From positions 420,001 through 452,000 of the forward strand of contig CAZKBG010000001.1 of assembly GCA_964551375.1 (NCBI GenBank): a DNA stretch of 32,000 bases. Reading direction: 5' to 3'. Below, one piece after another: positions 1 to 26,213 of the stretch (within the stretch, counting starts at the first letter, position 1; every line of letters starts with the position of its first letter). The translations under genes and the position numbers were made by a program. The notes under the pieces are model-generated. The model saw nothing but the letters and a program-made list of their open reading frames with translations, was not told where the DNA came from and made no database searches. The stretch is from an uncultured archaeon (GTDB lineage Archaea; Iainarchaeota; Iainarchaeia; Iainarchaeales; JAAZKV01).

Positions 1-484
1 AAACCTTCTTTCCCTCTTTAAGAAACTGGACAATTTTTATCTGAAGCTGGGTTAAATTTCTCAAAGAATCAATAAACATTACTCCGTCAAAATCTTCTGC
101 GTTTGAAATGCTTTTTGAAACGCAGTCAATTACAAAAAACTTCTGATAAACGCCTGATTCGCTCAAAATAGAAGCAACCCCTTTGTAATTTCCGTTAAAA
201 AGAACCAGCACCGGAATTTCGCCGTTTTGAATGACAAGCTTTGAAAGCGCTGCAAAAAGATCCCTTGAATTTGTTACATCGCAGGAAAAAAGCGCCTGCC
301 CTTTAAAAGAAGCCGGAAGCTTTGACTTAACTTCAGTCAAAATCTTTTCAGGACCCAAAAGAGAAGAAAATGCGTCAAATTTAGCGGACTGTTTTGAAAC
401 TTCAGACGCGGTTGTCTCGCGATTTGATAAAATCGCCTCAAAAGCCTTTTTCTGCTCGTCAGTCAAAGTAAAAGATGATGCCAT
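1..484 (-). CDS. Edge-truncated CDS (N-terminal 161 aa visible): RecA/KaiC(FlaH)-like protein without a recognisable P-loop; paralog of 11181..11744
   Basis: Hand translation of the minus strand from ATG (484..482) gives MASSFTLTDEQKKAFEAILSNRETTASEVSKQ...GVYQKFFVIDCVSKSISNAEDFDGVMFIDSLRNLTQLQIKIVQFLKEGKKV with no stop down to position 1. It is absent from the ORF track because it leaves the window. The listed 231..512(+) ORF is its antisense shadow. It shares the block ..IDC.S....(I/F)....LT.LQ... with the 11181..11744 product. Confidence 0.6.
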   Translation of the reverse strand, partial: MASSFTLTDEQKKAFEAILSNRETTASEVSKQSAKFDAFSSLLGPEKILTEVKSKLPASFKGQALFSCDVTNSRDLFAALSKLVIQNGEIPVLVLFNGNYKGVASILSESGVYQKFFVIDCVSKSISNAEDFDGVMFIDSLRNLTQLQIKIVQFLKEGKKV

Positions 485-663
485 GCAAGAGAAATATGAC
501 TTAACTTGTTAATAAATCTAAAGTAGCGAAAAAAGATGGATAAATTTAAAATAAACTGAAAAAATCAAAAAAAATCCAATAAATAACTCTGCAAAAACTC
601 CATAAAGCCATCTTTATAAACAAGAAAGAAGTAATATTGATTGAAAAAAAAAGCGTGAACTTG

Positions 664-3045
664 ATGGGGTTATTCTCTGGAAAAAAAGAAGCCAAAGGCG
701 GCCTTGGGGAGATAAAAAACCTGACAATGGGCGCAAATAAGGCTGATTCGGGCAATAAAAATGAGGAGAAGTTAGTGTCAAGCTCCGTGGATAATGATGT
801 AAAACTATTTAAGGAACAGCAAAAAGCAGCAGAGAACCAGTCAATCGAACTTGATAAAGAAAAAACAAGCCTGTTTGAAGAAGCTAAAGCGCCAAGCGCG
901 TTTGACAAACTGCGAAATCTTTCAAACACAGTAACTGAAATCCCTAAAACAAAAACAATCACCACTGAAAACTTTTCAAAACCCGTTGTAAGCCAGCCCG
1001 CTCCTGAAAAAGTGGTGCCGACGAATGTTGGATTTGAAATTAAAAGAGAAGGAAATGCTCCAAAAATAATAAAAGAAAAAAATATTGCCAGCGCGCTTGA
1101 AACCCAGAGCACAAAAACTGACGCTGGGGATAAAAAGGACGTTTTCTTTGACTGGATGAAACAACCCCCAATTGATGCTCCGCTTGCTGATGATTTTAAA
1201 GAACAAAAAGAAGCCCCTATTGTTAATGAAGAAATTAAAATCAGCGTTGATACGCAGCTAAAGACTCCTATTGACGAACTTTTCAATACGCTTGAACAAT
1301 ACCCTATGCTTGATACTGGAAGACTCGCAGAGCTTTCAGGATTATCCTCTGAAATGATAGAACAAATAGCAAAATTGTTTGAAGAAGACGGGGTAATTGA
1401 AATAGAATATCCTGCAAGCCTTACAAAAAAACCAATTTTGAGGCTGAAAAATCCGGTAACAAGCAAAATAAACAAAGTGCCGAATGGAAAAGTGCTTGAA
1501 GAGTATCTTCTTGAAGTGGATTATGTTCCTGCAAAAATAAAAATAATACTTGCAGCAGGAGAAGCAAGGCCGATTTATGCTGTTGAGCTTCCTTCAATTG
1601 GAAAATACACTCTGCGGTTTTTGCAGTTCATAAAAGATGAAGTAGCAGAAACAATGCCGATTGATCTTGAAGAAATTGTCGACCCTAAAAAATCAAGAAA
1701 ACTAAAAGAAAGATTCTTTAATGAATTAAACTCTCACATGACAAAATACTTCCCGACTTCCCCAAAAGAAATTATCAGCATGCTTTCAGGAGTACTACTT
1801 CATGACATGTACGGACTGGGAAATATTGAACTAATAATGGGAGACGACATGCTTGAAGAAGTAAGCATAAACTCTTCAAAAACACCAATCACTGTTTATC
1901 ACAGAGTACAAGGATGGCTAAAGACAAACCTGCAGCCTGGAACTGAAGAAGAAATCAATAACTTATCCTCGCAAATCGGAAGAAAAATCGGAAGGGAAAT
2001 AACAGTTCTAAATCCAATACTTGATGCGCACTTATTATCAGGAGACAGAGTTAACGCAACCTTATTTCCAATCTCCGCTGAAGGAAACACCATAACAATT
2101 CGAAGATTTGCAAGAAAACCCTGGACAATAATTGATTTTATTGGAAAAGCGCACACAATGAACTCTGAAATGGCCGCAACACTGTGGCTTGCAATGCAGT
2201 ATGAATTAAACATTCTAATCGCAGGGGGAACAGCATCAGGAAAAACAAGCGCGTTAAATTCAATGCTTGCGCTTGTGCCAACATATCACAGAATACTAAC
2301 TATTGAAGATGTAAGGGAAATAGTGCTTCCAAAATATCTTGAATGGAACTGGGTGCCAATGGTAACAAGATCCTCAAACCCTGAAGGGTTAGGAGAAGTA
2401 ACAATGCTTGAACTAATGGTAACAAGCTTGAGAATGAGACCTGACCGTATAATTGTGGGGGAAGTAAGAAGAAAAAAAGAAGCAGAAGTACTAATGGAAG
2501 CAATTGAAACAGGACACAGTATTTACTCAACACTGCACGCTAACTCTGCGTACCAGGTTCTTAGAAGACTCGCAGAACCGCCAATTAATATTCCACTAAT
2601 GCAAATTGAACTAATTGACTTAATTGTAGTACAGTACCGTGACAGAAAAACAAACAAAAGAAGAACTTACGAAATTGCAGAAATTGAACAAACTTCAACC
2701 GGACAGGGACTCCAAGTAAACACAATATACAAATGGATTCCAAGAACTGATTCATGGGAGAAGTTAAATCGGCCAATAAAACTAATTACGCTATTAAACA
2801 TGCACACGGGACTAACTGAAGAAGAAATCGGCAGAGAAATACAAGACAGGCAGGAAATACTTGAATGGATGCAAAGACAAAACATAAACGAACTTGACAT
2901 AATAGGATTTTTAGTAAAATTATATTACTCAGATGCGAACATGATAAAGAAAATGGCAAAACAAAACACTCCATTTTCAAAAATAAAAGAACTGCTTGAC
3001 GAAGATAACAGACTGAATGAGGAAAATCAGCCAATACAACTGTAA
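664..3045 (+). CDS. Type IV pilus / archaellum-family secretion ATPase (FlaI/PilB/TadA/VirB11 superfamily) with a long N-terminal extension
   Basis: Walker A LIAGGTASGKTSALN, Walker B region RPDRIIVGEVRRKKEA and His box TGHSIYSTLHAN. It lies immediately upstream of two T2SSF platform genes. Start is uncertain: ATG 664 (preferred, downstream of TATA-like CTTTATAAA at 612-620) or TTG 637 as in the ORF track. Confidence 0.9.
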   Translation: MGLFSGKKEAKGGLGEIKNLTMGANKADSGNKNEEKLVSSSVDNDVKLFKEQQKAAENQSIELDKEKTSLFEEAKAPSAFDKLRNLSNTVTEIPKTKTITTENFSKPVVSQPAPEKVVPTNVGFEIKREGNAPKIIKEKNIASALETQSTKTDAGDKKDVFFDWMKQPPIDAPLADDFKEQKEAPIVNEEIKISVDTQLKTPIDELFNTLEQYPMLDTGRLAELSGLSSEMIEQIAKLFEEDGVIEIEYPASLTKKPILRLKNPVTSKINKVPNGKVLEEYLLEVDYVPAKIKIILAAGEARPIYAVELPSIGKYTLRFLQFIKDEVAETMPIDLEEIVDPKKSRKLKERFFNELNSHMTKYFPTSPKEIISMLSGVLLHDMYGLGNIELIMGDDMLEEVSINSSKTPITVYHRVQGWLKTNLQPGTEEEINNLSSQIGRKIGREITVLNPILDAHLLSGDRVNATLFPISAEGNTITIRRFARKPWTIIDFIGKAHTMNSEMAATLWLAMQYELNILIAGGTASGKTSALNSMLALVPTYHRILTIEDVREIVLPKYLEWNWVPMVTRSSNPEGLGEVTMLELMVTSLRMRPDRIIVGEVRRKKEAEVLMEAIETGHSIYSTLHANSAYQVLRRLAEPPINIPLMQIELIDLIVVQYRDRKTNKRRTYEIAEIEQTSTGQGLQVNTIYKWIPRTDSWEKLNRPIKLITLLNMHTGLTEEEIGREIQDRQEILEWMQRQNINELDIIGFLVKLYYSDANMIKKMAKQNTPFSKIKELLDEDNRLNEENQPIQL

Positions 3046-3060
3046 AAATGTGGTGAAAAA

Positions 3061-3963
3061 ATGGCAAACAAAAACAAAACTCCGGTGCTAATGCTTTATT
3101 CAGTAGAGAATGCAAAAAAATTCAGCGAAAAATACTTATTCATCGGAAGATTTCTTTCAAAAATAATATTTTCATTAAAATATGACCTGCAAAAAGCAGA
3201 AATTGATTTGGATGTTGAAAGATACTGCCTTGCAGCACTCATCTCGGCAAGCCTCTACGGATTAATGTTTATTTTTGTAGGAATGGCATTTGGAGCAATA
3301 ATTACCCGAAGCTTTGGAACACTGACAATAGGAATAATGGCAATAGCAAGCATTGGCTCATTTGTAGGGGCCCTAATTTTTCACTTATTTTACCCAAAAA
3401 TCGCATCATTCCAGTTAGCAGGACTTGTAGACCAAGACTTGTTATTTGCATTAAGAACAATGCTAATCCAGTTAAGCTCAGGAATAAGCTTATTTGAAGC
3501 AATGAAAAATGTTTCAAAATCAAGCTACGGACAGGTGTCAGTAGAATTTGCGCTTGCTATTAGAGATATTAATTCAGGAGTAAGCGAAACAGCCGCTCTT
3601 GAAAAACTTGCATTTAGAACAAAATCAGAGATCCTGAAAAAAACCGCTTGGCAAATAATTACCACAATGAGAAGCGGGGGCTCAATTGTAAATGCGCTAA
3701 ACTCACAGGTTGAGACGCTGGTTGAGCAGCAAATGGACGCAATAAAGTCATACTCTGCGGAACTAAACCTCTGGACACTTGTTTACTTAATAATTGCAGC
3801 AGCAATGCCTTCACTTGGAATAACATTTTTGGTAATTGCATCATCCATCGGCGGAAGCGGAATAGGAGCGGAAACAGTAATACTAATAATAGTAATGTCA
3901 ATTTCTGTACAGGTTGCCATGATTTTACTAATCAGGTCAAAAGTTCCAAAGGTAGTGAAATAA
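3061..3963 (+). CDS. Pilus platform membrane protein with a single T2SSF-like domain (FlaJ/TadC-like half)
   Basis: Polytopic membrane protein. A cytoplasmic helical block, LIQLSSGISLFEAMKNVSKSSYGQVSVEFALAIRDINSGVSETAALEKLA...RSGGSIVNALNSQVETL, is typical of T2SS protein F / FlaJ. GGTGA RBS at 3052-3056. Confidence 0.85.
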   Translation: MANKNKTPVLMLYSVENAKKFSEKYLFIGRFLSKIIFSLKYDLQKAEIDLDVERYCLAALISASLYGLMFIFVGMAFGAIITRSFGTLTIGIMAIASIGSFVGALIFHLFYPKIASFQLAGLVDQDLLFALRTMLIQLSSGISLFEAMKNVSKSSYGQVSVEFALAIRDINSGVSETAALEKLAFRTKSEILKKTAWQIITTMRSGGSIVNALNSQVETLVEQQMDAIKSYSAELNLWTLVYLIIAAAMPSLGITFLVIASSIGGSGIGAETVILIIVMSISVQVAMILLIRSKVPKVVK

Positions 3964-5025
3964 ATGTTTGCAGGACTCTCATCAATATTTGGAAGCCTCC
4001 TACCAAGAGAATTTGTTGAGACACAAGTAAAGGTTGCGCTTCAAAGAGCAGGCTCAAAAGACGACCCACGCACATGGGTAGGATTAAGAGTATTCATTGC
4101 AATTTTAACCGGAGCAATGGGCTTTCTTATCCCATTTAGTGTTTTCCCTCTTGCTAATATTTTGTTTAACGCTAACATTTACTTTGACCTGCCAATTCGA
4201 ATCGCGCTAATGATTGGATTTGCACTTGCAGGATTAATGGGAAGCTTGGTGATTTTTTATCTGCACATATCATATGTAATTGACGGAAGAAAAAAAATGG
4301 TTGAAAGCATACTTCCTGACTTTTTATTCCTTGTCGGAAATAATTTGAAAAGCGGAATGGCTCCATTTTATGCATTCCGCTCAGCTGTGCGCCCAGAATT
4401 TGGACCACTGAGCGAAGAAATCAAAATTGCCACTCAAAAAAGCTTAGGAGTTGAATCATTCTCTGACGCGTTAAAGCAAATGGGGGAAAGAATTGATTCA
4501 AAAATACTTGAAGACACAACAAAATTCTTCGGACAAGCACTTCGCTCAGGCGGACACTTGGCGCAATTAATAGAAACAACAGCGCTTGATATTAAACAAA
4601 CAAACAGATTGAAAAAAGAACTTGTAACTTCAACAAAAATGTACACTATGTTCATTTTATTTGTTGTAATAGTTGCTTCCCCAATGCTCTTAGCTGTAAG
4701 CGTTGAATTTTTGCATATTCTTGGAGGCATAAGTGAAAAAACCGCAGGAGTAAGCGGAATGACTAACGCAGCAATATCAAAGCAAACTGGAATGGGCTTA
4801 ACCGCGGGAGCAGTATCAATCACCCCTGACTTTATGCAAAACATAGGATACTTTATCATTCTTGTCAACTCGCTCCTTGCGAGTGTGTTTATTGGAATAC
4901 TTGGCGGGGGAAAAATAAGAGACGGACTCAAATATGCGCCTGTAATGATAATCGCAGGACTTGTGCTATTTGTTGTCTTCTTAACTCTTGTAAGCGGAGT
5001 ACTAAAAGGATTCAGCGGAGTATAA
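3964..5025 (+). CDS. Pilus platform membrane protein with a single T2SSF-like domain (FlaJ/TadB-like half)
   Basis: Contains LVGNNLKSGMAPFYAFRSAVRPEFGPLSEEIKIATQKSLGVESFSDALKQMGERI...RSGGHLAQLIETTA followed by TM helices. Its ATG directly abuts the TAA of the previous gene (3961-3966), which suggests translational coupling. Confidence 0.85.
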   Translation: MFAGLSSIFGSLLPREFVETQVKVALQRAGSKDDPRTWVGLRVFIAILTGAMGFLIPFSVFPLANILFNANIYFDLPIRIALMIGFALAGLMGSLVIFYLHISYVIDGRKKMVESILPDFLFLVGNNLKSGMAPFYAFRSAVRPEFGPLSEEIKIATQKSLGVESFSDALKQMGERIDSKILEDTTKFFGQALRSGGHLAQLIETTALDIKQTNRLKKELVTSTKMYTMFILFVVIVASPMLLAVSVEFLHILGGISEKTAGVSGMTNAAISKQTGMGLTAGAVSITPDFMQNIGYFIILVNSLLASVFIGILGGGKIRDGLKYAPVMIIAGLVLFVVFLTLVSGVLKGFSGV

Positions 5026-5116
5026 TTAAATAGCGGCTTATTAATAAACTCAAAAACCCACAAATCAGCTATAGAGTATAATAAAACTTCTTTACGTATG
5101 AATCCTTCGCAATAGG

Positions 5117-5125
5117 TTTAAATAC
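5117..5125 (+). promoter_or_regulatory. TATA box (TTTAAATAC) of the major pilin gene
   Basis: TTTAAATAC lies about 48 nt upstream of ATG 5173, with a GGGAGG RBS at 5159-5165. The identical 9-mer precedes the 58-aa ORF at 13045(-). Confidence 0.6.
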
Positions 5126-5172
5126 TACCCAGATATTATTGTATCAATAAAACTTCAAGGGAGGTAGTAAAA

Positions 5173-5634
5173 ATGATTGCAAAGAAAGGACAGGGAACAA
5201 TCGAATACTTGGTAATCATAGCAATTGTAATTGTAATTGCTTTGGTAGTTGTTGGATTGTTATTACAGATACTTCAGAACAGCGGAGGCGCAGGAGATTC
5301 AGCAGCGAAAGCTACTTGGAAATCAGGCTCACCGTGGGGAATTAGCGACTGGGCTTACGGTTCAGACGGTAATTTAACTTTAGTACTTGTGAACAACTCA
5401 AGCGACACATTAGAATTGAATAATGTTGCAATAACAGGCGGAACATACAGAACAGCTTCTGTAACAACAGTTCCACCAAGCGGAGGACAGTCAATAGTAA
5501 AAGTTGCTATTACATGCACAAGCGGCACAAAAGCAGCTTTCAAGAAATCAGATGTATCAATTGACTATAACTCACCATCAATCGACAACAAGACACAAGG
5601 CGGAGCAGCTGACATTGTAGTTAACTGCCCATAA
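5173..5634 (+). CDS. Major type IV pilin (archaeal class III signal peptide protein)
   Basis: N-terminus is MIAKKGQGTIEYLVIIAIVIVIALVVVGLLL: a short basic leader, then G/Q, E at +5 and a hydrophobic helix (the QGxxEYL class III signal motif). It has its own TATA box, a strong RBS and a terminator hairpin, and carries several N-x-S/T sequons. Confidence 0.85.
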   Translation: MIAKKGQGTIEYLVIIAIVIVIALVVVGLLLQILQNSGGAGDSAAKATWKSGSPWGISDWAYGSDGNLTLVLVNNSSDTLELNNVAITGGTYRTASVTTVPPSGGQSIVKVAITCTSGTKAAFKKSDVSIDYNSPSIDNKTQGGAADIVVNCP

Positions 5635-5650
5635 AAACCTCCAATTTTAA

Positions 5651-5691
5651 TTGAAGAAGAGCCAAAAGCTCTTCTTTCAATATATTTTTTT
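5651..5691 (+). terminator. Hairpin plus T-run terminator after the pilin gene
   Basis: TTGAAGAAGAGC (5651-5662), loop CAAAA, then GCTCTTCTTTCAA (5668-5680), followed by a T7 run at 5685-5691. Confidence 0.6.
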
Positions 5692-5809
5692 AATTTATTC
5701 CCTTGTGAAAAGAGTCCCCTATAAAGTAAGCGCTTTACTTCAATTATAAAAAAAGCAGAGGGGTTGATGAAGTAAATCAAAAAAAAACAAGCATAATTTA
5801 ACAGAGCAT

Positions 5810-6661
5810 TTATCTGTAAATTGCAATCAGTGAATTAGAATCAAACCTTGCATCACTTATTTTAATCCAAGAATTCCACTCAACAGGCATTATTTTTTCA
5901 AGCAGTTTAACCCGAAGAGAATAATCAATCTTTTCAGTGCTGTTTGTAAAAATCTCTACCCCAGCATCCTCTCCTGTTGACACAGTCCCAAATGTCACAA
6001 GCATATTTGAGTCATCGCTAAATACAAGAACAATGCTTGAAGCGGAGTTTAAATCAAGAAGCTCTGAAACTAAAAATGCATTTGAATCTCCAGAAAAATT
6101 AAAATTCACTGAAGAACTGCCGATAACAGGGCCCGCAGTCCATAAATAATAATTCAAATCCTTCCCAGCCCTGATGTTTAAGTCAATTGAAGATAATTCC
6201 CCATACCCGTTTTTTGGAGCAAATACAACTGATTTAGCGGAATAATTATTTCTAAAAACATAATTAGCGCCAGTATTGATTTCTGCTGCGCCGTCTGAAA
6301 GGCTTGTTAAGTCAGTGCTTTCAACCCATGCGTTAGAAGGAAACACCTTATTTGAAATAAAATCTGAATAAGACGATATTATGGAAGAATAATTTAAACT
6401 TCCTGAAACTGAGCCGTTAAACTCCAAAACCCCGTTGCCGTCAGCGTAAATTGAGAGCCCAAAAACCCTCAACAAATCATATGAAACATCATCAATCAAG
6501 TTAGGCACAAACACCGCTTTTGAAGAAAGAATAATCTGTTTCTCGTTAACAGAATTATTATTCGCATAAGTCTGGGCAAAGAACAAAAGAGTTGAAGCGA
6601 ATAAAATTATTGAAATGGTGAACAAAAAGCCCCTTGATTTATGGTTTAGTTTAAAAGTCAC
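5810..6661 (-). CDS. Pilin-like / pilus-associated secreted protein (degenerate class III signal)
   Basis: N-terminus is (M)TFKLNHKSRGFLFTISIILFASTLLFFAQ: basic residues, G, then a hydrophobic helix. The GTG start sits in a GTGA overlap with the upstream stop, and GGGGTGGG lies upstream. It is the last gene of the six-gene minus-strand cluster. Confidence 0.55.
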   Translation of the reverse strand: MTFKLNHKSRGFLFTISIILFASTLLFFAQTYANNNSVNEKQIILSSKAVFVPNLIDDVSYDLLRVFGLSIYADGNGVLEFNGSVSGSLNYSSIISSYSDFISNKVFPSNAWVESTDLTSLSDGAAEINTGANYVFRNNYSAKSVVFAPKNGYGELSSIDLNIRAGKDLNYYLWTAGPVIGSSSVNFNFSGDSNAFLVSELLDLNSASSIVLVFSDDSNMLVTFGTVSTGEDAGVEIFTNSTEKIDYSLRVKLLEKIMPVEWNSWIKISDARFDSNSLIAIYR

Positions 6662-7080
6662 TTAACCCACCCCTCAATTCTTGCGACAAAAAATGAAACA
6701 CTATTGCCGTCATTCACAACAAAACTCCTCTCAATTGAAGCAACCTCGCTTGCATTTTTAACACAGCCTGTTTTTACTGCATGCACTACTGGAAGAGAAG
6801 TAACTGGATTAGTTATTGTAACTTCAAAGCAGACATTCATAGCGCTCTCATTGAGCTTTGACAATAAAGCATCGCTTGAAGACTGGTTAACTGAATACTC
6901 AAGCGTCATTGTTTTTTCAAGAACAGCAGCTTCATCATTAACAATATTTCTCAAATCAATTAAGTTCCATGAAGTAAGCGATACTTGGGAAAGATAAAAG
7001 AAAGAAATAATTATGAAAAGCAAAATCAGGGTAGCGCCCAAAAATGCGTCAACTGTAATCACAAAGCCCTTATTATTCAC
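6658..7080 (-). CDS. Minor pilin-like protein (class III signal peptide)
   Basis: N-terminus is (M)NNKGFVITVDAFLGATLILLFIIISFFYL. GTG at 7080 is preceded by GGTGA (7090-7086) at 5-nt spacing. The ORF-track start at 7089 is an alternative. Confidence 0.6.
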   Translation of the reverse strand: MNNKGFVITVDAFLGATLILLFIIISFFYLSQVSLTSWNLIDLRNIVNDEAAVLEKTMTLEYSVNQSSSDALLSKLNESAMNVCFEVTITNPVTSLPVVHAVKTGCVKNASEVASIERSFVVNDGNSVSFFVARIEGWVK

Positions 7081-7085
7081 ATAAA

Positions 7086-7643
7086 TCACCCTGCGGAAGA
7101 AAGAATTACCTCAAAAATTGCATTTGAATTATTAAAAATAACAAGCCGCTTGTAAGAAAATTTAAGCTTTGGATTTGTTACAACCCTTCCCCCTTCAACA
7201 GGAGCTCCATTATACACTATTGTCGAGCCGTCAGAATCCGAAAGCCTAAAATACAAATCATAAGCCCCGAGTCCAAGCTTTACTCTCGTCTGAAGATAAG
7301 TTACATCATTATTCAAAAGATTTGCAAGCGCAACAACTTTCCCTGATTCAATAACATTAGGAGAAAAAGAAAGCCCTAAGAGAGAAACATTAGCAAAATC
7401 AAGAGTTTCCCAATTCCACGGCTCTCCGCTTGAAAGAAGCATCGAATTCATTGCTAAATGCGCTGATTCATCCGCAAGCTTTCTATCCTCAAAAATTGCC
7501 ACATCATTAAACACTGCGTTGCTTGAGCTGAAAAAAACAAGAAGCGCAAAAACAAAAACCGACATGGCAATCATAAGGTCAGGAGAGAAAAACTGTCCTT
7601 TATTATTCAAAAAATCACCCATTTCGAACAACAACCTTTCCAT
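7086..7643 (-). CDS. Minor pilin-like protein (class III signal peptide)
   Basis: Contains ...MGDFLNNKGQFFSPDLMIAMSVFVFALLVFF. An alternative start at ATG 7622 overlaps the upstream stop by 8 nt (ATGGGTGA). Confidence 0.65.
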   Translation of the reverse strand: MERLLFEMGDFLNNKGQFFSPDLMIAMSVFVFALLVFFSSSNAVFNDVAIFEDRKLADESAHLAMNSMLLSSGEPWNWETLDFANVSLLGLSFSPNVIESGKVVALANLLNNDVTYLQTRVKLGLGAYDLYFRLSDSDGSTIVYNGAPVEGGRVVTNPKLKFSYKRLVIFNNSNAIFEVILSSAG

Positions 7644-8022
7644 TTTCTTTTGAAAAAATAACCGTGCCGCTCGGCTCGCTTGTCAAAAGCTCCACTTCCT
7701 TTGCGACAAAAGGAACGCTCACTTCAAACTGCCCCTCATACACCACAACTGTGCTCCCTTCTATTGCAATTCTTCTCGCCCCGCCGCTCCATACTATTGA
7801 ATCAATAATCATCGCGTTGTTATCAAACAAATCAGCATTGCTTATGTCCCTTGCAATTCTAAACGCCACATCTTTTGCAATCCAGTTTGTGGTATAAGTA
7901 TAATTCATATCCATTCGGTCCTGAAAAATCGTAACGCCGAAAATAAAGACAAATAAAATCATAATAATTGTGACAATGAATTCCATAGTCACCTGCCCTT
8001 TAATGATTCGCGCTTTTACCAT
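7615..8022 (-). CDS. Minor pilin-like protein (class III signal peptide)
   Basis: N-terminus is MVKARIIKGQVTMEFIVTIIMILFVFIFGV (KG/Q, E at +5, hydrophobic helix). ATG 8022 is preceded by GGTG. The ORF-track GTG at 8031 is an alternative. Confidence 0.75.
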   Translation of the reverse strand: MVKARIIKGQVTMEFIVTIIMILFVFIFGVTIFQDRMDMNYTYTTNWIAKDVAFRIARDISNADLFDNNAMIIDSIVWSGGARRIAIEGSTVVVYEGQFEVSVPFVAKEVELLTSEPSGTVIFSKENGKVVVRNG

Positions 8023-8033
8023 AAACACCACTA

Positions 8034-9899
8034 TTATGAAACAACCCTTGTATAAGAAATATTAACATCAATTAAAATCGGAGAAATATTTGAGTCAACT
8101 GTGTTAAGCACTGCGAGATACTGGACATATCTTCCGTTTGGAACTGAGAGCACAACAGGGCTTGTATTTCCAGCGTTAAACCAATCGCTCCATACCGCGC
8201 CAAGAATGCTTGAGCGGACAAAAATATTTATGTTGGTATCCGATTCGCTGCCCCCTCCTTCAAAGGATTTTGCCCACGCTATAGAATCAAATTCCGCGGA
8301 GCCGAGCAAATCAAACTCCCTTGAGTAAAAGTTTCCGTCAAGAGAATAAACTCCCGCATCCTGCAAAAGCAAAAGCCCGCCAGCGCTTGAAGATACATTA
8401 AAATCTTCCGCCCCTATTGCTGAAGAGAAATTATTCTCTGAATTATCAATAACACTATTCATCGGGTCAAAAATTCCTGACCAATAATAAGCCCCTCCTT
8501 TTGAGAGGAAGCCTGCTTTGAACTTTTCAGAATCATTTTTAATATTTCCATCAAAATTCATGTCAAGAATTCTTGAAGTGTTAAAAATAAAATTAAAATC
8601 ATCCACATCAGCCCAAATACCGGCCGGAATGCTTGAGGACGGAGGAAGCAAATCAACGCCATTTAAGTACATGTGCGTCATGTTTGAATCCTCAAGGTCA
8701 TTTGAGGACAAGAACAGCACTTTATCCACCAAAATATTTGAATCATTGTTGAACACATTCCCGTCAGCAATAGAAAAACCATCTTCTGATACTATTGCGC
8801 TGCTCCAGTCAAAAACAACCGTGCTTGGAACAAGATTTTCAACCACAATAAAATTTATTTCAGACATTGCATCAAGCCCGGCTGATTGAACTCTTAAAAT
8901 CCCGCCATAAGTTCCTGTTGAAGCTGGAGGAATTAAATTTAATTCAAGGGTTTTGCAGGAATTTTTAGGCAAATCGCCAATGCTTTTTGGAAATACATAA
9001 TTTGAAGCCGCGCCGCTGATTGAAATCAAAGCCGAAGCAAAATCCGAAGTTGAATTATTGCAAATAATTACTGAATCAGAAGAATTCAAAGACACCTGCG
9101 CATAAATATTTTTATCAACAGGATAAAGCCCAAGCTTCTTTTGGGAAGAAGCGCAGAAAACATTCACTGGAAATGACAACGGAGTATTTGCACCCGCAAC
9201 CGGAGCGAAATTTACTATTCCTGAATAAGAGCCGAAAGAATCGCTCCCGCAGGATATTTCAAAATTCAACAAAACATTTTCATCAGCGTTAAGAGTAATT
9301 TCCCCCGCATCAATTGAAGAAACAACTGCCCCGCTTCCACTGACAGGGAAATTAATTGACATGTCATAAGTTATTGACTCTTGAGAATAATTAGTAAACA
9401 ACACTCCCGCTGATTTTGACTGGGACTGAATAACTGTTTCTGAAATGCTTGCAGGAACAAAACTTGCTTTTGTCACTGAAACGTGAACAAAATCGTTAAA
9501 TGAAGTGATAACAAAATTAAACGAGCCAGTGGTGTTTGGCCAAATTCCCCTAACATCAATTTTTGTTGAAGCAGTGTGATCGGTTCCCGCAACGCTTAGT
9601 ATAATCGCCCGCCCGCTGATAAAAGATTTGTTTAAATCAACCCCTTCAGGCATGGGAAGAGTAATGCTTCTCACTGTTCCAGGCCCCAAAAAATATGCAT
9701 CATCCACTTCCTTGGCAAGGGCTCTTACCGCAAGCTCTGCTGTGTTCTGCTGCTGCTGGGCATAACCGTAATTCATCTGCTCATAAACCATTGTGACAAG
9801 CGCTGCAAGAATAAAAATCCCAATAGCCATTATCATAAGGGATTCAATGGAAGTCTGTCCAATACGCCTTTTCACATTTTTAGCCGACAAATAAATCAA
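8034..9899 (-). CDS. Large pilin-like surface protein (class III signal peptide plus ~580-aa Ser/Asn-rich extracellular region)
   Basis: N-terminus is ...KNVKRRIGQTSIESLMIMAIGIFILAALVTMVY. I count about 15 N-x-S/T sequons by hand. The internal motifs DSFGSYSGIVNFAP and SCKTLELNLIPPAS are shared with the 9970..11076 product. Start is TTG 9899 or in-frame GTG 9875. Confidence 0.75.
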   Translation of the reverse strand: MIYLSAKNVKRRIGQTSIESLMIMAIGIFILAALVTMVYEQMNYGYAQQQQNTAELAVRALAKEVDDAYFLGPGTVRSITLPMPEGVDLNKSFISGRAIILSVAGTDHTASTKIDVRGIWPNTTGSFNFVITSFNDFVHVSVTKASFVPASISETVIQSQSKSAGVLFTNYSQESITYDMSINFPVSGSGAVVSSIDAGEITLNADENVLLNFEISCGSDSFGSYSGIVNFAPVAGANTPLSFPVNVFCASSQKKLGLYPVDKNIYAQVSLNSSDSVIICNNSTSDFASALISISGAASNYVFPKSIGDLPKNSCKTLELNLIPPASTGTYGGILRVQSAGLDAMSEINFIVVENLVPSTVVFDWSSAIVSEDGFSIADGNVFNNDSNILVDKVLFLSSNDLEDSNMTHMYLNGVDLLPPSSSIPAGIWADVDDFNFIFNTSRILDMNFDGNIKNDSEKFKAGFLSKGGAYYWSGIFDPMNSVIDNSENNFSSAIGAEDFNVSSSAGGLLLLQDAGVYSLDGNFYSREFDLLGSAEFDSIAWAKSFEGGGSESDTNINIFVRSSILGAVWSDWFNAGNTSPVVLSVPNGRYVQYLAVLNTVDSNISPILIDVNISYTRVVS

Positions 9900-9969
9900 C
9901 TCTAAAGAGCATTATATTAACCAAATTGAGCTTTAAAATAGTTTTTAGAGCGAAAAAATGGCTTCTTAA

Positions 9970-11076
9970 TCAGCTGACTGCAACTTCAACAAACCCAGCT
10001 GCCCTGTTTGAATCATTATAAACGGCAAAAAAGTTTGAATCATAAACCATGCTGGGCGCCCCTGGAGGAATATTAAAAGTTAAATTAAATGACTTGCACG
10101 CTCCCGAGTTAATTGAATCAATAGGATTTCCACCCAAATCAAGGGCGGGAAGATTATACCAGTCAAGCATATTGGCATCGCTTCTTGAAACTTTTTCCCA
10201 AACAATTCCTGAAACTAAATTTTCAGAAGAATTGCATATTGAAAAACTTTTCACAGCAGAACTGCCCGCGGAAGCTGCAAACGAAGTGCTTTTTGGGTAA
10301 ATTGCAAGCGCGCTCGCGTCAGGAAAAGCTTCAATTGAGAAAACAATTCTCTTTGAATAATTTGAATCGCTAACTCCGTTGCTCAACTGCGCATTTATAT
10401 CAAACACCCCGACATAATTTCCGTAAGCAGAAGAACTCAAAGAAATATTAAAATCAATTAATTTTGACTCGCCTGTGTTTAGAACAAACTCAGAGCACCC
10501 TTCGCACATTTGAAAACTTGCCTCGCTTCCGCCCTCAAAAGTCTGGCTAATCCAAAACCTTGCGCCAAAGCTTGATAAATTTCTTATAGTAAAAAAGCTC
10601 CCCGCCGTGCTTGACTGCTTTGCCGAAAGAGAAACGCTTTCAGCGCTCAATTCGAAATCATCATACAATAGTTTTACCACATTTCCGTCAAAGTACATGT
10701 TAGCAAAATAAGAGCCAAAAATATATCTGCCGTTTTCCTTCTTCCAGTCCCCGAGAATTATCACATCGGCAGAACTAATCACATCCCCGCCGTTTGAAAG
10801 AGCCAAATTAACTTCCCTGCCGTTAATCGCGCTCGCATTCATCCTAAGCGAATCAGGAAGTTCAATTAAAATCCTTGATTTTGAGCCCGCGCCAGAAGCA
10901 TAAAGCACATTGGCAGTATTAACAATTCTATCAACCGTAACTTTTGCAGTGGTCTGCTCTCTTGCAATCTGGCTTGAGTTAACCTGATTTGTGTAAAGAG
11001 AAAAAATTATGCTCAAAGCAAGCATGGAAGCGGCAAGGATTAAAATCAATTCAACAGTAGTCTGCCCTCGATTCAT
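9970..11076 (-). CDS. Large pilin-like surface protein (class III signal peptide)
   Basis: From ATG 11076 the product reads MNRGQTTVELILILAASMLALSIIFSLY. ATAAATAC (minus strand, 11105-11098) sits about 22 nt upstream, consistent with a leaderless transcript. The ORF-track start at 11133 is GTG and adds 19 non-signal residues. An oligo-T run follows directly after the stop. Confidence 0.75.
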   Translation of the reverse strand: MNRGQTTVELILILAASMLALSIIFSLYTNQVNSSQIAREQTTAKVTVDRIVNTANVLYASGAGSKSRILIELPDSLRMNASAINGREVNLALSNGGDVISSADVIILGDWKKENGRYIFGSYFANMYFDGNVVKLLYDDFELSAESVSLSAKQSSTAGSFFTIRNLSSFGARFWISQTFEGGSEASFQMCEGCSEFVLNTGESKLIDFNISLSSSAYGNYVGVFDINAQLSNGVSDSNYSKRIVFSIEAFPDASALAIYPKSTSFAASAGSSAVKSFSICNSSENLVSGIVWEKVSRSDANMLDWYNLPALDLGGNPIDSINSGACKSFNLTFNIPPGAPSMVYDSNFFAVYNDSNRAAGFVEVAVS

Positions 11077-11180
11077 GAATAGTAAAACGATTTTACTGTA
11101 TTTATTTATTGCTAAATGGGAAAAAGCCCTCACTAACCGCCCTCAAAAGTATTTTATAAGGAAAAACCCCTTTATGTTGC

Positions 11181-11744
11181 ATGATAAATGCAACTTTCAT
11201 GAAAGAAGCGATTGCAACTTCGGATAAAAAAGTCACTTTTGTGATGCTTAATCAAAAACAGGGAAAGGACGCTGTTGAATTCACAATTAACGCGCTCTTA
11301 AATCAAATGAAAAAAATTGTTTTAATTGCGTTCTCAAAACAGCCATCGGAGTCATTCAGACAAATAATAACTCAAAATGATAATATTTCGCTTATTGACT
11401 GCTCAGGAAGCTTGAACGAAAATCCAAGGACAATATCAATAGGAAACCCTTCAGATTTGACAAGCCTGCAGGTGGCGCTTGATAAAATTGACAAGGAAAT
11501 CGCAGGACCCAAGACTATAATATTTGATTCAGTAAATATGATGGCTATTTACAACAAAAAGGATGATTTTGGGAGATTTATTCACTTACTAAGCAACAAA
11601 ATGCGGCTTAAAGAAAATTCAATTATCTTTTTCACAACAAAAGAATCCACAAACCAGAATGCTCTTGATGTAATGCAGGAGCTTGCGGATAAAACATACG
11701 ATTACAGCAGCCTCTTAATCGGCGCAATATCAGTTTACGAATAA
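11181..11744 (+). CDS. RecA/KaiC(FlaH)-like protein with degenerate P-loop; paralog of the edge gene 1..484
   Basis: Has a RecA-like beta-strand/helix pattern: KKVTFVMLNQKQGKDAVEF (only GK remains where GxxGxGKT would be), a Walker-B-like TIIFDSVNMM, and IIFFTT. It shares ..LIDCSGS...ISIGNPSDLTSLQVALDKI with the edge gene. An alternative start is ATG 11199. Confidence 0.5.
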   Translation: MINATFMKEAIATSDKKVTFVMLNQKQGKDAVEFTINALLNQMKKIVLIAFSKQPSESFRQIITQNDNISLIDCSGSLNENPRTISIGNPSDLTSLQVALDKIDKEIAGPKTIIFDSVNMMAIYNKKDDFGRFIHLLSNKMRLKENSIIFFTTKESTNQNALDVMQELADKTYDYSSLLIGAISVYE

Positions 11745-11814
11745 TAACCAAGAAACAAAAAGTTTGATCCTGATAACCCTGATTTAGAGAGGAAGAATTC
11801 TAAAAAAAATATTT

Positions 11815-12705
11815 TTAGAACACTTCAACATCAGGATAAATTGCAATTCCATCTTTTTCAAAATTCATCGCGCAAACTTTATTTGTGTGCCGAGTGCCGC
11901 GCATCTTAATTACTTCAAGAGAGTGAATTCTAATTCCTCTTTCCTGATCATGCGCATAATAAAGCGAAACAATCGCATCGCTGATGAACCCGATGCTCCC
12001 CTCTTCTTTTTCAATATCAGCAGGAGAATCCTCGCAAACAACCATGGAAGTAACCCCCCATTTTCGAAGCAGGTTAAAAAATTCAAGTATTTTTTCTCTT
12101 CTCTTATACTCATCCCTGAAAAGAAGCCCATATGCTGTCACTGAATCAACAACAACCCTCTGCGCGCTTACTTCCGCAAGCGCATCCCTAATCTGCCCGC
12201 CCCCTTCTTCAAGTATTTTAGTTACCTGGTGCGGCTTAAACTCAAGCAAACGAAACTTATTTTCCTTTTCAAGCTTCTCAAAATCCCAGCCGAATTGATT
12301 TGCATGCCTAAACAAAGATGTTCTATCTTCTTCAAAAGTAATGAAAACGCCAGGCTCGTTAAACTCTTCAGCGCCTTTATACAAAAACTGAAGACTCAAA
12401 AGGGTTTTTCCAGTTCCTGAAGCGCCGACTACAAGAACAATTGATTCCCTCTCATACCCTCCGCTAATAAGCTCATCAAAACCGTTAATCCCTGTCTTAA
12501 CTCTTGTTTGAGGAGTGCCCTTATTTACACGCTCAACAACAAACTTTTTGTCATCAAAACCGCCCAAATCATCATCAGGACCAAGCGGAGAAGTGAGCGG
12601 TTTAATTTTAATTGAGCCGCTCGGGTCAGTATTTATGCTAAAACCCGGCTGGGAGAAAGAAAGCTTATTTTTATTCAAAGAAAAAACATTTTCTTCATCA
12701 GGCAT
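11815..12705 (-). CDS. KaiC/RadA-like single-domain RecA-superfamily ATPase
   Basis: Walker A LVVGASGTGKTLLSLQF, Walker B RVVVDSVTAY, and the KaiC-family pattern GINGFDELISGGYERESIVLV. There is a ~60-aa Pro/Gly/Asp-rich N-terminal extension. Confidence 0.85.
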   Translation of the reverse strand: MPDEENVFSLNKNKLSFSQPGFSINTDPSGSIKIKPLTSPLGPDDDLGGFDDKKFVVERVNKGTPQTRVKTGINGFDELISGGYERESIVLVVGASGTGKTLLSLQFLYKGAEEFNEPGVFITFEEDRTSLFRHANQFGWDFEKLEKENKFRLLEFKPHQVTKILEEGGGQIRDALAEVSAQRVVVDSVTAYGLLFRDEYKRREKILEFFNLLRKWGVTSMVVCEDSPADIEKEEGSIGFISDAIVSLYYAHDQERGIRIHSLEVIKMRGTRHTNKVCAMNFEKDGIAIYPDVEVF

Positions 12706-13374: not shown

Positions 13375-13902
13375 TTACAATAAAATTCTTTCAGCAGAGT
13401 AATAATTCACAAAATCTTCAGAATCAATAACCGCAATTAAAACAACTGTGTGAATATTGCCTGAGAGTCTTGTCATTCTGCTCAACTGAGGCATGGTAAG
13501 TTTCTCTGATTCAGGAGCCACATGAATTACATATTTTGAATGCTCCTCGCCCATTTTCTTTCCTTTGGGGTAAACTCTAAAATCAAATCCAAACTTCAGC
13601 CCTGTTTTAACGCAGTAACCTTTTTCCCTTAAATCAGAATATACTAAAAACTTGGAATAAAACCGCTTATCCTTCTCAAGCGCAAGAGCAAGAAGCTTTT
13701 TTTCACCCACTAACTTGTTCTTCTTATCAACAACATTTAATTTGCTGTTTTTTGACAAATAAACTGATTCAAATAAATCAAGCACCAAATTTCGTCCCTT
13801 GTTTTCTCCAAAACCCTTCTCGACAAGAATCCCCTTAAGAGTGGCGTCCTCAACAACAACCTTATTCTCAAACAAATGAGCAATATTCTCAATTTCGGCC
13901 AT
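13375..13902 (-). CDS. endA: tRNA-splicing endonuclease (short, homotetramer-type size)
   Basis: Contains ...GLKFGFDFRVYPKGKKMGEEHSKYVIHVAPESEKLTMPQLSRMTRLSGNIHTVVLIAV, matching the catalytic-domain pattern of archaeal EndA. The start is taken as ATG 13902 (MAEIENIAHLF...). The ORF-track start at 13956 would overlap the upstream gene by 41 nt. Confidence 0.85.
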   Translation of the reverse strand: MAEIENIAHLFENKVVVEDATLKGILVEKGFGENKGRNLVLDLFESVYLSKNSKLNVVDKKNKLVGEKKLLALALEKDKRFYSKFLVYSDLREKGYCVKTGLKFGFDFRVYPKGKKMGEEHSKYVIHVAPESEKLTMPQLSRMTRLSGNIHTVVLIAVIDSEDFVNYYSAERILL

Positions 13903-13915
13903 AAAATCACTTATC

Positions 13916-14320
13916 TTATCTCTTCTTCTCCGCATCAACTGACACAGCAACTTCAACTACATCCACATGCACTTTATTTTTTTTCAGCTCTTTTACTATG
14001 TCATCAAAAAACTGAATTTCCTGCTTTACTAAAACCACTTTGTCAACTTTCTTAATCAAAGCAATTGAAACGATTTTTGGAATTGTTGAACCCCACTCTG
14101 TGAGCTCGTCATACTTCTTCCTTTTAGCACCAATTTCTTTTTTAATCCCGTCAAGAACAATCCTAAACTGCCTGACTTCACCCATAGCAGAGCCAGCTCT
14201 CGGGCTAAAATCCTTATCCACTATCTGAAGCAGAATAATTTCATCCACTTTATTTGTAATAGCCTCAATAAAAGCAGGCTCTTTTTCTCTGCCTGTTAAG
14301 ACAGGAACTAAAATCTTCAT
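13916..14320 (-). CDS. Hypothetical protein, possibly USP-like (adenine nucleotide alpha-hydrolase fold)
   Basis: MKILVPVLTGREKEPAFIEAI...VDKVVLVKQ shows the alternating strand/helix pattern of USP-like proteins, but no clear ATP-binding G-x2-G-x9-G(S/T) motif. It appears to be in an operon with endA. Confidence 0.35.
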   Translation of the reverse strand: MKILVPVLTGREKEPAFIEAITNKVDEIILLQIVDKDFSPRAGSAMGEVRQFRIVLDGIKKEIGAKRKKYDELTEWGSTIPKIVSIALIKKVDKVVLVKQEIQFFDDIVKELKKNKVHVDVVEVAVSVDAEKKR

Positions 14321-19386: not shown

Positions 19387-19416
19387 CTATAAGTTAGAAG
19401 TCATAGTGTGATTAAA

Positions 19417-21541: not shown

Positions 21542-22495
21542 ATGAACGCAATGCAGTTAGTGGTTTTTGGAATAGTCGCAGTGGCAATGCTTGCGGTGTT
21601 TGCTTATGTTATTACCCCGACTGTTCCAAACAGCGTTGATATTATAAAAAATTCTCTGCAAGACGCGCAAGTCCCAGGAAATATGGGGAAAACAATTTCT
21701 CTTGGAGCGCTTCCTTACCCAAAAAACGCAACAATAGGAAAAGAAGACCTTACTTACTCGCAAATGAGCGTTGCAATTGAATGCACAAGCGCAAGAGAAT
21801 GCTGCCCAAGAGACGCGGACCTTGGCGGGAAGAAATGCGACAAAGTATTATCATGGGATTATGACCATCTCACAGTAAGCACTGATAAGAGAATTGACAC
21901 TTATGTTAGATGCCTCTCGGAAAAAGGATACCCTGTGTGCAGAGTATACTTTGGAAGCGCGCCCGCGCAGGCAAAAATTGACTCTATTTCAAAGCCTGTT
22001 GAAACTCAAAGCGGGGAAATTAATCTCACAGTTACAATAAAAAATCTTGGCGCGGTTCCCGCTCCAATCGGAGAAAACTCCTTAGTGCTTCTTAAAAAAG
22101 TAAACGGCGACTGGCAGGAAAGCGATTATGATTCAAATGCAAAAGAAACTCCGGCAGTAATGCCAGGGGAAAAGCAAATAATGTACTGGACAATCAGCCC
22201 TAAGAATATCGGCGAATACAAGGCACGATTTAGGTACTCCGCGCTTGATTCAGGATTTGATGAGAAAAGCGTTGATTTTAACAGAGCGGTTATGAGTCAG
22301 TGCAACAGAACTGAAGGAACCACAACAATATTCGACCCTGAAAGCCAAAAATTTTGGGAAATACACAACTGCGAAAACTGCAACTATTCCTTTGAATGCG
22401 TCGCAGCATGGGCTAATTATACTAAAAAAGAATTCTTTGGAATCAACGCAACAAGCGCATACTGCAATAAAGACACAGAAAATGGAAGCTGTTAA
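21542..22495 (+). CDS. Secreted or membrane-anchored Cys-rich protein with a CARDB-like beta-sandwich segment
   Basis: N-terminal anchor is LVVFGIVAVAMLAVFAYVI. I count 14 Cys clustered at both ends. The middle segment GEINLTVTIKNLGAVPAPIGENSLVLLKK resembles CARDB-type domains. Confidence 0.55.
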   Translation: MNAMQLVVFGIVAVAMLAVFAYVITPTVPNSVDIIKNSLQDAQVPGNMGKTISLGALPYPKNATIGKEDLTYSQMSVAIECTSARECCPRDADLGGKKCDKVLSWDYDHLTVSTDKRIDTYVRCLSEKGYPVCRVYFGSAPAQAKIDSISKPVETQSGEINLTVTIKNLGAVPAPIGENSLVLLKKVNGDWQESDYDSNAKETPAVMPGEKQIMYWTISPKNIGEYKARFRYSALDSGFDEKSVDFNRAVMSQCNRTEGTTTIFDPESQKFWEIHNCENCNYSFECVAAWANYTKKEFFGINATSAYCNKDTENGSC

Positions 22496-25827: not shown

Positions 25828-25862
25828 TACTTCCCTGGCAATATGTATGAAGGTGAGCTTTG

Positions 25863-26213
25863 ATGAGAGCAGCTTTAATTGGATTAATATTTGTAATACT
25901 CTTGATGCTAACAAGCGCAAGCTTTGCTTATTCAGGATTTAACAGATACTACTACACAGACAACTACTACCCAACAACTTACTACGCAGCACCATACGCA
26001 AACTCATACTACTACCCTACATCATATTACTACCCATCATACACATACAGCACATACTACCCAGTGGTAACTTACACAGCACCTACATATTACTACCCAA
26101 CAAACTACTACTCAGGATACACAAGCGGAGTTAGCGTATACGGAACTACAAGCTCTGGAAATTGGGGATTCTCAGTAACCAGAAGCAATTGCGGATACTA
26201 CGGATATTGTTAA
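25863..26213 (+). CDS. Secreted tyrosine-rich low-complexity protein
   Basis: Signal-peptide-like MRAALIGLIFVILLMLTSASFA, followed by YSGFNRYYYTDNYYPTTYYAAPYANSYYYPTSYYYPSYTYSTYYPVVTYTAPTYYYPTNYYSGY...CGYYGYC. It has its own TATA box, RBS and downstream hairpin. Confidence 0.65.
   Translation: MRAALIGLIFVILLMLTSASFAYSGFNRYYYTDNYYPTTYYAAPYANSYYYPTSYYYPSYTYSTYYPVVTYTAPTYYYPTNYYSGYTSGVSVYGTTSSGNWGFSVTRSNCGYYGYC

Follow-up and report, generated by a model that had tools for sequence, protein, structure and literature searches.

A probable non-archaellar type IV pilus locus, with a proposed adhesive mechanism, in an Iainarchaeota (DPANN) archaeon

Most DPANN archaea remain uncultured; they presumably live attached to a host, by means that are poorly known. 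Type IV pili have been recorded for this group: the reference and LFWA-III DPANN genomes compared by Vazquez-Campos et al. (2021, PMC8561730), which include two Diapherotrites references, generally have them. Makarova, Koonin and Albers (2016, PMC4858521) described archaeal pilus loci with two tadC genes, at least five minor pilins, large adhesins and a duplicated Ig-like minor pilin, arCOG02911. Their "clade 1", to which the Epd pilus belongs, corresponds to "System 1" of a recent preprint (Sivabalasarma and Albers, 2026, bioRxiv 10.64898/2026.04.22.720090), a system reported in methanogens, Thermococcales and DPANN archaea. The preprint also describes split-platform systems ("System 1" and "4A") in DPANN archaea and N-terminal ATPase domains that are specific for the subsystems. 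For DPANN archaea, Makarova et al. (2019, PMC6393860) presented loci with FlaI-like ATPase, TadB and TadC, and with "dark matter" pilins that have no detectable similarity to other archaeal pilins. Here we analyze thirteen genes within the first 12.7 kb of a 32,000-nucleotide stretch of DNA from an uncultured archaeon (GCA_964551375.1, contig CAZKBG010000001.1, positions 420,001 to 452,000), which we call the window. They belong to a complete-looking cluster for what is most probably a type IV pilus of non-archaellar kind in an Iainarchaeota (DPANN) archaeon, and we propose an adhesive mechanism for it. This kind of system is already known in DPANN and other archaea, and its accessory proteins are unnamed.

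An earlier note on this DNA had described a secretion ATPase, two T2SSF-type membrane genes, a 153-aa pilin and six convergently transcribed genes. All of them were recovered in place, and the Pfam profile searches that it had suggested find T2SSE in g1 and T2SSF in both g2 and g3 (Table 1). The g1 product is a T2SSE hexameric-type ATPase, and g2 and g3 together encode a split platform with a single T2SSF domain in each half. With the class III pilin g4, the locus has the T2SSE ATPase, the T2SSF platform and the class III substrate by which archaeal type IV filament systems are generically recognized. The ATPase carries the motifs GGTASGKTS (nucleotides 2224-2250), DRIIVGEVR (2443-2469) and TGHSIYSTLHAN (2509-2544). 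Among solved structures in the PDB, afGspE is its closest relative (2OAP, 3e-68), followed by FlaI (4II7, 5e-48) and CpaF (1e-38). Its best NCBIfam model is FlaI/ArlI (NF058587), with 259 bits at a cut-off of 550, and the TadA and BasE models reach 169 bits (cut-off 373) and 155 bits (cut-off 1000). Orthologs of g2 are 60-80% identical.

The ATPase has a long N-terminal extension. The alignment to afGspE begins at the N-domain, and about 280 residues of g1 precede the aligned region. Residues 1-200 (about 637-1260 in the window) form a K/E-rich linker that is poorly conserved and variable in length. They are followed at ~205-265 by a conserved, winged-helix-like segment with repeated sub-threshold matches to HTH_Crp_2, HTH_24, TrmB and LrpA, and from ~280 onwards by the N-domain and the T2SSE core. 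The whole ATPase measures 783-1130 aa among sister genomes, and the ATPase of a distant locus shows the same faint winged-helix match.

All seven predicted filament proteins (g4-g10) start with a short basic leader of 4-11 residues, continue with G and then Q or F, and enter a helix of ~20 hydrophobic residues. The Pfam Class_IIIsignal model, proposed earlier as a check on all seven, passes its cut-off of 23.7 bits for g4 only; g10 stays below it, and the other five score nothing. Conservation of the motif in orthologs, on the other hand, supports the signal in all seven: across 8-10 orthologous loci the filament proteins are only 30-55% identical overall, and each family has nevertheless kept its N-terminal motif (Table 1). 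A loose class III pattern scan through all six frames of the window placed all of its N-terminal matches within 5.1-11.1 kb. Two internal transmembrane segments came up as false positives, and g5 was missed on the hydrophobicity threshold. Together, the retention of a motif per family despite such low identity and the clustering of the scan matches speak against chance as the origin of the class III leaders.

The predicted major pilin is g4. The glutamate at +5 is invariant in 64 homologs, and the family is large (178 matches). An AlphaFold2 model built with 64 homologs (predicted local distance difference test score, pLDDT, 85.6) shows a helix at residues 9-35, a short second helix and a beta-sandwich. 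When this model was searched with Foldseek against the PDB, five of the top seven matches were archaeal pilus subunits (6W8X, 8Q30, 6W8U, 8FK7 and 6NAV; E 3e-3 to 9e-3), from S. solfataricus, the Aap pilus of S. acidocaldarius, two Pyrobaculum pili and S. islandicus; a sequence search of g4 against the PDB found nothing. The possibility that the N-terminal helix is an ordinary signal anchor on an unrelated protein, which had been raised as a way in which the pilus assignment could fail, agrees less well with the predicted structure, which fits an archaeal pilin, even if the matches are weak. The gene is preceded by a GGGAGGT ribosome-binding site and by an A/T-rich box (TTTAAATA) ~50 nt upstream. 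In the convergent gap between g4 and g5 lies a terminator-like hairpin with a T-rich tract, identified by consensus match (one such hairpin found, against 0.2 expected in shuffles). In several relatives, the g4 ortholog is tandemly duplicated. Because of its own strong ribosome-binding site, A/T box and hairpin, the tandem copies in relatives and the size of its family, g4 looks like the shaft subunit, that is, a pilin of the abundant type.

For the gene starts we relied on a public contig of identical sequence (L017), whose genes had been called independently. The genes g1, g2 and g3 follow each other tightly on the plus strand, and a gap of 147 nt separates them from g4. Six minus-strand genes converge on this run, in the order of transcription g10, g9, g8, g7, g6 and g5. 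Four of their five junctions overlap or are 1-11 nt wide, the junction between g10 and g9 measures ~79 nt, and we read g10 to g5 as a single translationally coupled operon with g10 as its first gene. The right border of the cluster is formed by g11 and g12. On the left, the start of the window cuts through the cluster, as g0, a conserved gene of 225 aa, is present with its first 161 codons only. Of the extent given in the earlier note (1-12705), the genes therefore stand and the boundary does not, since the cluster runs on upstream of base 1.

For comparison, one genome per species was scanned, which yielded 16 loci with the same ATPase at 57-80% identity (L001-L016). The metagenome-assembled genomes (MAGs) that contain them are labeled archaeon, Candidatus Iainarchaeum, Ca. 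Forterrea or "ainarchaeum"; Ca. Forterrea belongs to the phylum Iainarchaeota in the kingdom Nanobdellati, i.e. to the DPANN archaea. These Iainarchaeota/Diapherotrites relatives, and a pilin identical to g4 on a contig of 946 kb, bear out the suspicion that the DNA comes from a small genome of DPANN type. Across more than 20 Iainarchaeota/Diapherotrites loci (L001-L021), gene order is kept wherever contigs are long enough, and the recurring layout is pseudo-KaiC, ATPase, two T2SSF genes, pilin(s), a four-gene cassette, two large pilins, pseudo-KaiC and KaiC. In one of these loci, three inserted genes (AbiEii toxin-like, unknown and with a Bro-N domain) separate the cassette of minor pilins from the large pilin genes of the operon (L021, 12888-15200). 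Within the window, no mobile genes were seen around the pilus cluster.

The two large pilin-like proteins, g9 and g10, are paralogs. Positional orthologs of g10 in sister genomes range from 369 to 1639 aa, some of them truncated by contig ends, and the long ones (723-1639 aa) contain one to seven LamG_3 domains, which are concanavalin-A-like lectin domains. The g9 product consists of a conserved core (~350 aa) and a C-terminal extension (~270 aa) that varies among lineages, and the g9 ortholog P0137 has LamG_3 in place of this extension. A stable motor and shaft combined with swapped, pilin-anchored surface modules is the pattern of modular adhesive pilins. The lectin domains in the g10 orthologs also speak for the earlier proposal of a candidate attachment apparatus. 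The pilus is probably a sticky filament with sugar-binding subunits. As for the extension of g9 itself, a homolog search with g9 returned only four homologs, a tblastn match of 67 residues (45% identity) links its C-terminus with that of a protein from L001, and a phmmer search of the extension against the large orthologs found nothing.

Further large proteins (497-1037 aa) are encoded a few kb upstream of two sister loci (L001, 2819-5932; L005, 1-5738). Their N-terminus is nearly identical to that of the major pilin (GQGTIEYLVILAIIVV). PEGA, DUF5018 and GLUG domains were identified in the 1037-aa protein of L001, the sole one scanned. The large proteins resemble additional modular pilins and could use the same machinery.

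Whereas pilus initiation has been studied in depth in bacteria, it has received almost no attention in archaea. The bacterial minor pilins GspH-I-J-K and FimU-PilV-W-X prime assembly and stay at the tip, where GspK is the top and largest subunit and, having no subunit above it, lacks E5. In the locus described here, g8, g7, g6 and g5 form a cassette of four consecutive small pilin genes, as in the bacterial initiation complexes (GspH-I-J-K, FimU-PilV-W-X and ComGD-GG). The acidic residues of the four products follow the order E5, D6, D6 and none. Like GspK, the product of the last cassette gene, g5, is the largest and has no conserved acidic residue. Unlike the bacterial complexes, two of the four subunits have D at +6, and no similarity in sequence or fold was detected. 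The cassette behaves as a unit, since it is inverted as a whole block in L007 and relocated in two distant loci (L022 and L023), where it lies directly upstream of the ATPase and the two T2SSF genes, with one large pilin gene before it. The order of motifs is the same in these loci (GQxxxE, GQ...D, G[FI]xxTxD and an acid-free subunit). The MAG that contains L022 is labeled Altiarchaeota. By analogy with the bacterial complexes, we propose that g8, g7, g6 and g5 may form an initiation or tip complex with g5 on top.

A profile search with g5 among 1.84 billion proteins found 222 cluster representatives of its family, nearly all of 270-300 aa, and D or E is absent from positions +1 to +8 of the mature protein in all 137 of the 137 full-length representatives. 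Family members that carry labels are all called "hypothetical protein", and the lineage labels are Diapherotrites or Iainarchaeota, save for one MAG labeled Altiarchaeota. The AlphaFold2 model of g5 (13 homologs, pLDDT 82.5) has a 38-residue N-terminal helix (residues 9-46), followed by alpha/beta and beta-rich domains. L022 also contains a gene for a MinD/ParA-family ATPase (6400-7350), flanked by the genes for the acid-free pilin and for the secretion ATPase; it matches the FleN/MinD partner that Makarova et al. (2016, PMC4858521) predicted for such systems; the locus in the window has no MinD/ParA (FleN/MinD) gene.

Among described systems, the Epd pilus of Methanococcus maripaludis shares with this locus the combination of two platform genes with one ATPase, and the presence of many minor pilins and large adhesin-like proteins. 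Another shared feature is the G(-1)/Q(+1)/E(+5) signature of PF04021/DUF361-type pilins, found here in g4, g8, g9 and g10; g7 departs from it with Q at +1 but D at +6, and g6 and g5 have F at +1. The signature marks EppA-type substrates of Methanococcus and is unlike the pilins of Sulfolobus and Haloferax (Nair et al., 2013, PMC3875500). However, the major Epd pilin is ~70 aa long and headless (arCOG06620), whereas g4 has 153 aa and, in the model, a beta-sandwich head. The dedicated 9-TM EppA peptidase of Epd systems is often encoded at the pilus genes; no such gene was found in or near the present locus, nor a FleN/MinD gene within it. The Epd adhesins are of the DUF2341 type where the orthologs here have LamG_3, and the long N-terminal extension of the ATPase is a further difference.

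Clade 2, or System 2, which includes afGspE of Archaeoglobus fulgidus and the PilB-type loci of Haloferax volcanii, resembles the locus in other respects. afGspE is the closest solved ATPase, the ATPase N-terminus is extended, there are KaiC-family neighbors, and the duplicated, size-variable and beta-rich g9 and g10 recall arCOG02911. As defined in the 2026 preprint, System 2 has a single platform gene, in contrast to the two found here; many clade 2 loci have two tadC genes (PMC4858521). Haloferax pilins lack E5 (PMC3875500), which is present here. The locus thus mixes subsystems, with the platform and pilin signature of System 1, the ATPase and KaiC neighbors of System 2, and a headed 153-aa pilin.

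The DPANN "dark matter" pilus loci (Makarova, Wolf and Koonin, 2019, Fig. 2A) have a FlaI-like ATPase, TadB, TadC and a run of signal-peptide proteins, as does this locus. They were put forward as a general prediction, and that paper reports no four-gene cassette, acid-free subunit, lectin variability or pseudo-KaiC pair. With the bacterial Tad pilus, only the split TadB/TadC-like platform is shared: the TadA score is less than half of its cut-off, the long pilin shows none of the Flp features, and there are no matches to the accessory proteins RcpA, TadZ and TadD. In the narrow sense, it is therefore correct, as had been claimed, that the locus matches no named operon, but the novelty that this implied is overstated, since the architecture has been surveyed and depicted for DPANN and other archaea (PMC4858521, PMC6393860, bioRxiv 10.64898/2026.04.22.720090).

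We considered three other functions for the machinery. It is improbable that it is a DNA-uptake or DNA-exchange pilus, comparable to Gram-positive Com or Sulfolobus Ups, with which a reduced archaeon acquires nucleotides or genes. Such a function would agree with the frequent lack of nucleotide synthesis in DPANN archaea (PMC8561730), with a gene set (ATPase, platform, major pilin and four minor pilins, at a single membrane) that mirrors the textbook ComGA-GG system, and with the weak winged-helix-like segment in the ATPase N-terminus. However, this segment is sub-threshold and resides in the cytoplasmic ATPase rather than in the filament, the modules on the variable subunits are lectins (LamG) and not DNA-binding domains, and the conserved neighborhood has no ComEA, ComEC, Ced or nuclease genes.

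A short surface assembly in the manner of a pseudopilus or bindosome, on which g9, g10 and other class III proteins are anchored or displayed, is similarly unlikely to stand in place of a long adhesive filament. In its favor are the match of the ATPase to the BasE model and, near sister loci (F16, L001, L005), large class III proteins that combine domains of enzyme or adhesin type with an N-terminus like that of the major pilin; functionalized type IV filament machineries have also been proposed in the 2026 preprint (bioRxiv 10.64898/2026.04.22.720090). Yet the BasE score is far from its cut-off of 1000 bits, Pfam finds no substrate-binding-protein domain in g5-g10, and g4 has an invariant E5, its own ribosome-binding site, a hairpin and frequent tandem copies in sister loci, features that are typical of a shaft subunit.

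An archaellum is highly unlikely, and so is a rotary motility apparatus derived from one, in which the KaiC protein would take the part of ArlH and the upstream membrane proteins that of a stator or scaffold. For such a reading, FlaI/ArlI is the best NCBIfam model of the ATPase, the KaiC-superfamily genes at the flanks of the locus recall ArlH in archaella, and of two conserved upstream genes, one encodes a beta-rich protein with a transmembrane anchor and the other a membrane protein with a coiled coil. Against it, the FlaI score is under half of its cut-off and the non-archaellar afGspE is the closer solved relative, the platform is split and ArlJ models give 13-22 bits at cut-offs of 400-550, archaellin (PF01917) has no match at E<=1 in any of the seven filament proteins, g12 scores 29.8 bits where ArlH requires 215 and is far closer to KaiC, and no match to ArlF, ArlG, ArlC, ArlD, ArlE, ArlX or ArlH passes in the window or in the conserved upstream genes, the upstream proteins having no ArlF, ArlG or ArlX matches. 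We therefore reject the archaellum, and with it the identification of g12 as ArlH. The earlier note was right to call the pilus non-archaellar and to find no archaellum accessory genes in the window. The locus and archaella do share ATPase and platform proteins of homologous superfamilies, substrates with class III signals and a partner from the KaiC superfamily.

This leaves the adhesive type IV pilus as the reading that we favor, and several observations weigh against it. Neither g9 nor g10 of this genome has a recognizable adhesin or lectin domain in Pfam, and for g9 a search of PDB sequences gave no match either; the adhesive role is inferred from the lectin domains of orthologs. An A24 prepilin peptidase, a further defining component of archaeal type IV filament systems, was not found in the window, in 4.8 kb upstream, in 6.9 kb downstream or in the flanks of 16 related loci (the search covered the window, L017, L018 and the L001-L016 flanks, and the genome itself has ~0.95 Mb); its absence from the 32 kb had been noticed before. 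The fold matches of g4 are weak, with none at E<=1e-3 and template modeling (TM) scores of ~0.3-0.4, and a fold search among PDB structures gave no meaningful match to the g5 model. The assignment of the cassette to initiation is an analogy, and the KaiC proteins are connected with the pilus through guilt by association.

Together, our data suggest the following model for an adhesive pilus. A peptidase encoded elsewhere would cleave the filament proteins after the G (or A) at -1. The subunits g8, g7, g6 and g5 would then assemble on the platform as an initiation or tip complex, with the acid-free g5 on top. Through their pilin helices, g9 and g10 may join the structure and display adhesive modules, which in sister genomes would be the LamG lectin domains. 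The ATPase would then polymerize g4 into the shaft, making use of the invariant E5, and the filament could attach to a glycan-bearing surface or to a host cell. The KaiC protein and its inactive paralogs might modulate assembly or expression.

The KaiC-family genes g11 and g12 lie within the extent that the earlier note gave to the locus, as does the truncated g0, and were not mentioned there. KaiC-family neighbors of archaeal pilus loci were described by Makarova et al. (2016, PMC4858521). The KaiC-family ATPase encoded by g12 has a single domain, in which the Walker A motif (GASGTGKT) is intact, and a disordered N-terminus of 65 aa. It matches KaiC in the PDB at 1e-61 and the NCBIfam model KaiC_arch_3 with 153 bits, and its orthologs in L013, L019 and L020 are 59-71% identical. 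The pair g11-g12 follows the large pilin genes in all four of the loci that reach that far. Of the 16 loci L001-L016, 15 have a full-length g0 ortholog upstream of the ATPase gene and divergent from it, and the same holds for L017 and L019-L021. The two proteins g0 and g11 are paralogous (hhalign probability 98%, E=1e-13). Between them, they have weak Pfam matches to KaiC, DUF7504 and DUF835, and neither has a Walker A motif. Since the hhalign comparison of this pseudo-KaiC family with g12 is not significant, the label "KaiC-like" for g0 and g11 derives from the weak Pfam matches only.

Beyond g0, upstream of base 1, three more conserved genes follow (L017, 908-4572; also in the relatives among L001-L021). 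One product (~237 aa) is beta-rich and has a transmembrane anchor, another (~216 aa) is helical and has two transmembrane segments at its C-terminus, and the third (~270 aa) contains an internally duplicated unit (LPFP[RK]ATIT...RK). The conserved upstream proteins have no Pfam, NCBIfam or PDB sequence match, in the PDB also when profiles (F2, F4 and F6) were used.

The rest of the window contains archaeal housekeeping genes: a tRNA-intron endonuclease gene (13375-13956, minus strand), a 616-aa open reading frame (ORF) that by eye, and not by domain scan, encodes an ATP-dependent DNA ligase (19408-21258, plus strand), a 442-aa ORF that is GatD-like by eye (24385-25713, plus strand), a GatE-like gene with GatB_N/GatB_Yqey domains (26418-28310, plus strand), and tRNA genes at 18746, 31670 and 31870. 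The endonuclease, the ligase, GatD/GatE and the three tRNAs confirm that the DNA is archaeal chromosome. Between the GatD-like and GatE-like genes lies a 117-aa ORF (25860-26213, plus strand) with a signal-peptide-like start, a Tyr-rich repeat body (YYYP, TYY, SYY) and no Pfam match. Directly 3' of the ligase gene, a 317-aa Cys-rich protein is encoded (21542-22495, plus strand), which has an N-terminal hydrophobic segment and belongs to no Pfam family.

Table 1. Features of the pilus locus, with positions in the window. A slash marks the predicted cleavage site; family motifs are those kept in orthologs.
Feature	Position	Strand	Description	N-terminus	Family motif	Acidic residue	Remarks
g0	1-484, truncated	-	pseudo-KaiC (DUF7504/KaiC-like), 225 aa full-length				divergent from ATPase
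g1	664-3045	+	secretion ATPase, 793 aa				Pfam T2SSE E=1.3e-33
g2	3061-3963	+	platform half (TadB/C-like), ~4 transmembrane segments				one T2SSF domain, 3.4e-16
g3	3964-5025	+	second platform half, ~5 transmembrane segments				one T2SSF domain, 6.1e-12
g4	5173-5634	+	predicted major pilin, 153 aa	MIAKKG/QGTIEY...	[GA]/QGTIEY	E at +5	Class_IIIsignal 28.7 bits
hairpin	5653-5677	+	hairpin and T-rich tract, terminator-like				convergent g4/g5 gap; consensus match only
g5	5810-6661	-	pilin-like, 283 aa	...SRG/FLFTIS...	G/FLFTIS	none	candidate tip/cap subunit, last of cassette
g6	6658-7089	-	minor pilin-like, 143 aa	...NKG/FVITVD...	G/FvITvD	D at +6	
g7	7086-7622	-	minor pilin-like, 178 aa	...NKG/QFFSPDL...	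G/QFFSPDL	D at +6	start from L017
g8	7615-8022	-	minor pilin-like, 135 aa	...IKG/QVTMEF...	G/QvtmEF	E at +5	
g9	8034-9890	-	large pilin-like, 618 aa	...RIG/QTSIES...	[GA]/Q[ST][ST][IV]E	E at +5	candidate adhesin
g10	9970-11076	-	large pilin-like, 368 aa	MNRG/QTTVEL...	[GA]/Q[ST][ST][IV]E	E at +5	Class_IIIsignal 17.8 bits, sub-threshold
g11	11181-11744	+	pseudo-KaiC (DUF835/DUF7504/KaiC-like), 187 aa				Walker A degenerate
g12	11815-12705	-	KaiC-family ATPase, single-domain, 296 aa				Pfam KaiC 2.3e-59

The finding leaves the known kinds of archaeal filament systems unchanged. We regard it as doubtful, though worth stating, that the loci represent a distinct, Iainarchaeota-wide filament subtype outside the current subsystems, characterized by a split platform, a winged-helix-extended ATPase, a bacterial-style four-pilin tip capped by an acid-free subunit, interchangeable lectin pilins and a module of KaiC with two pseudo-KaiC proteins, and that this subtype serves as an organelle for recognizing and holding the host. 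As candidate leads on DPANN attachment and archaeal pilus initiation, the locus provides the cassette that an acid-free subunit would cap, the two pseudo-KaiC proteins, the membrane proteins encoded upstream and the N-domain of the ATPase. The E5/D6/D6/none cassette offers a testable model of pilus initiation in archaea. The stable shaft and motor, combined with large pilins that gain and lose lectin domains, would make the pilus a candidate attachment organelle, and the large pilins candidate determinants of its specificity.

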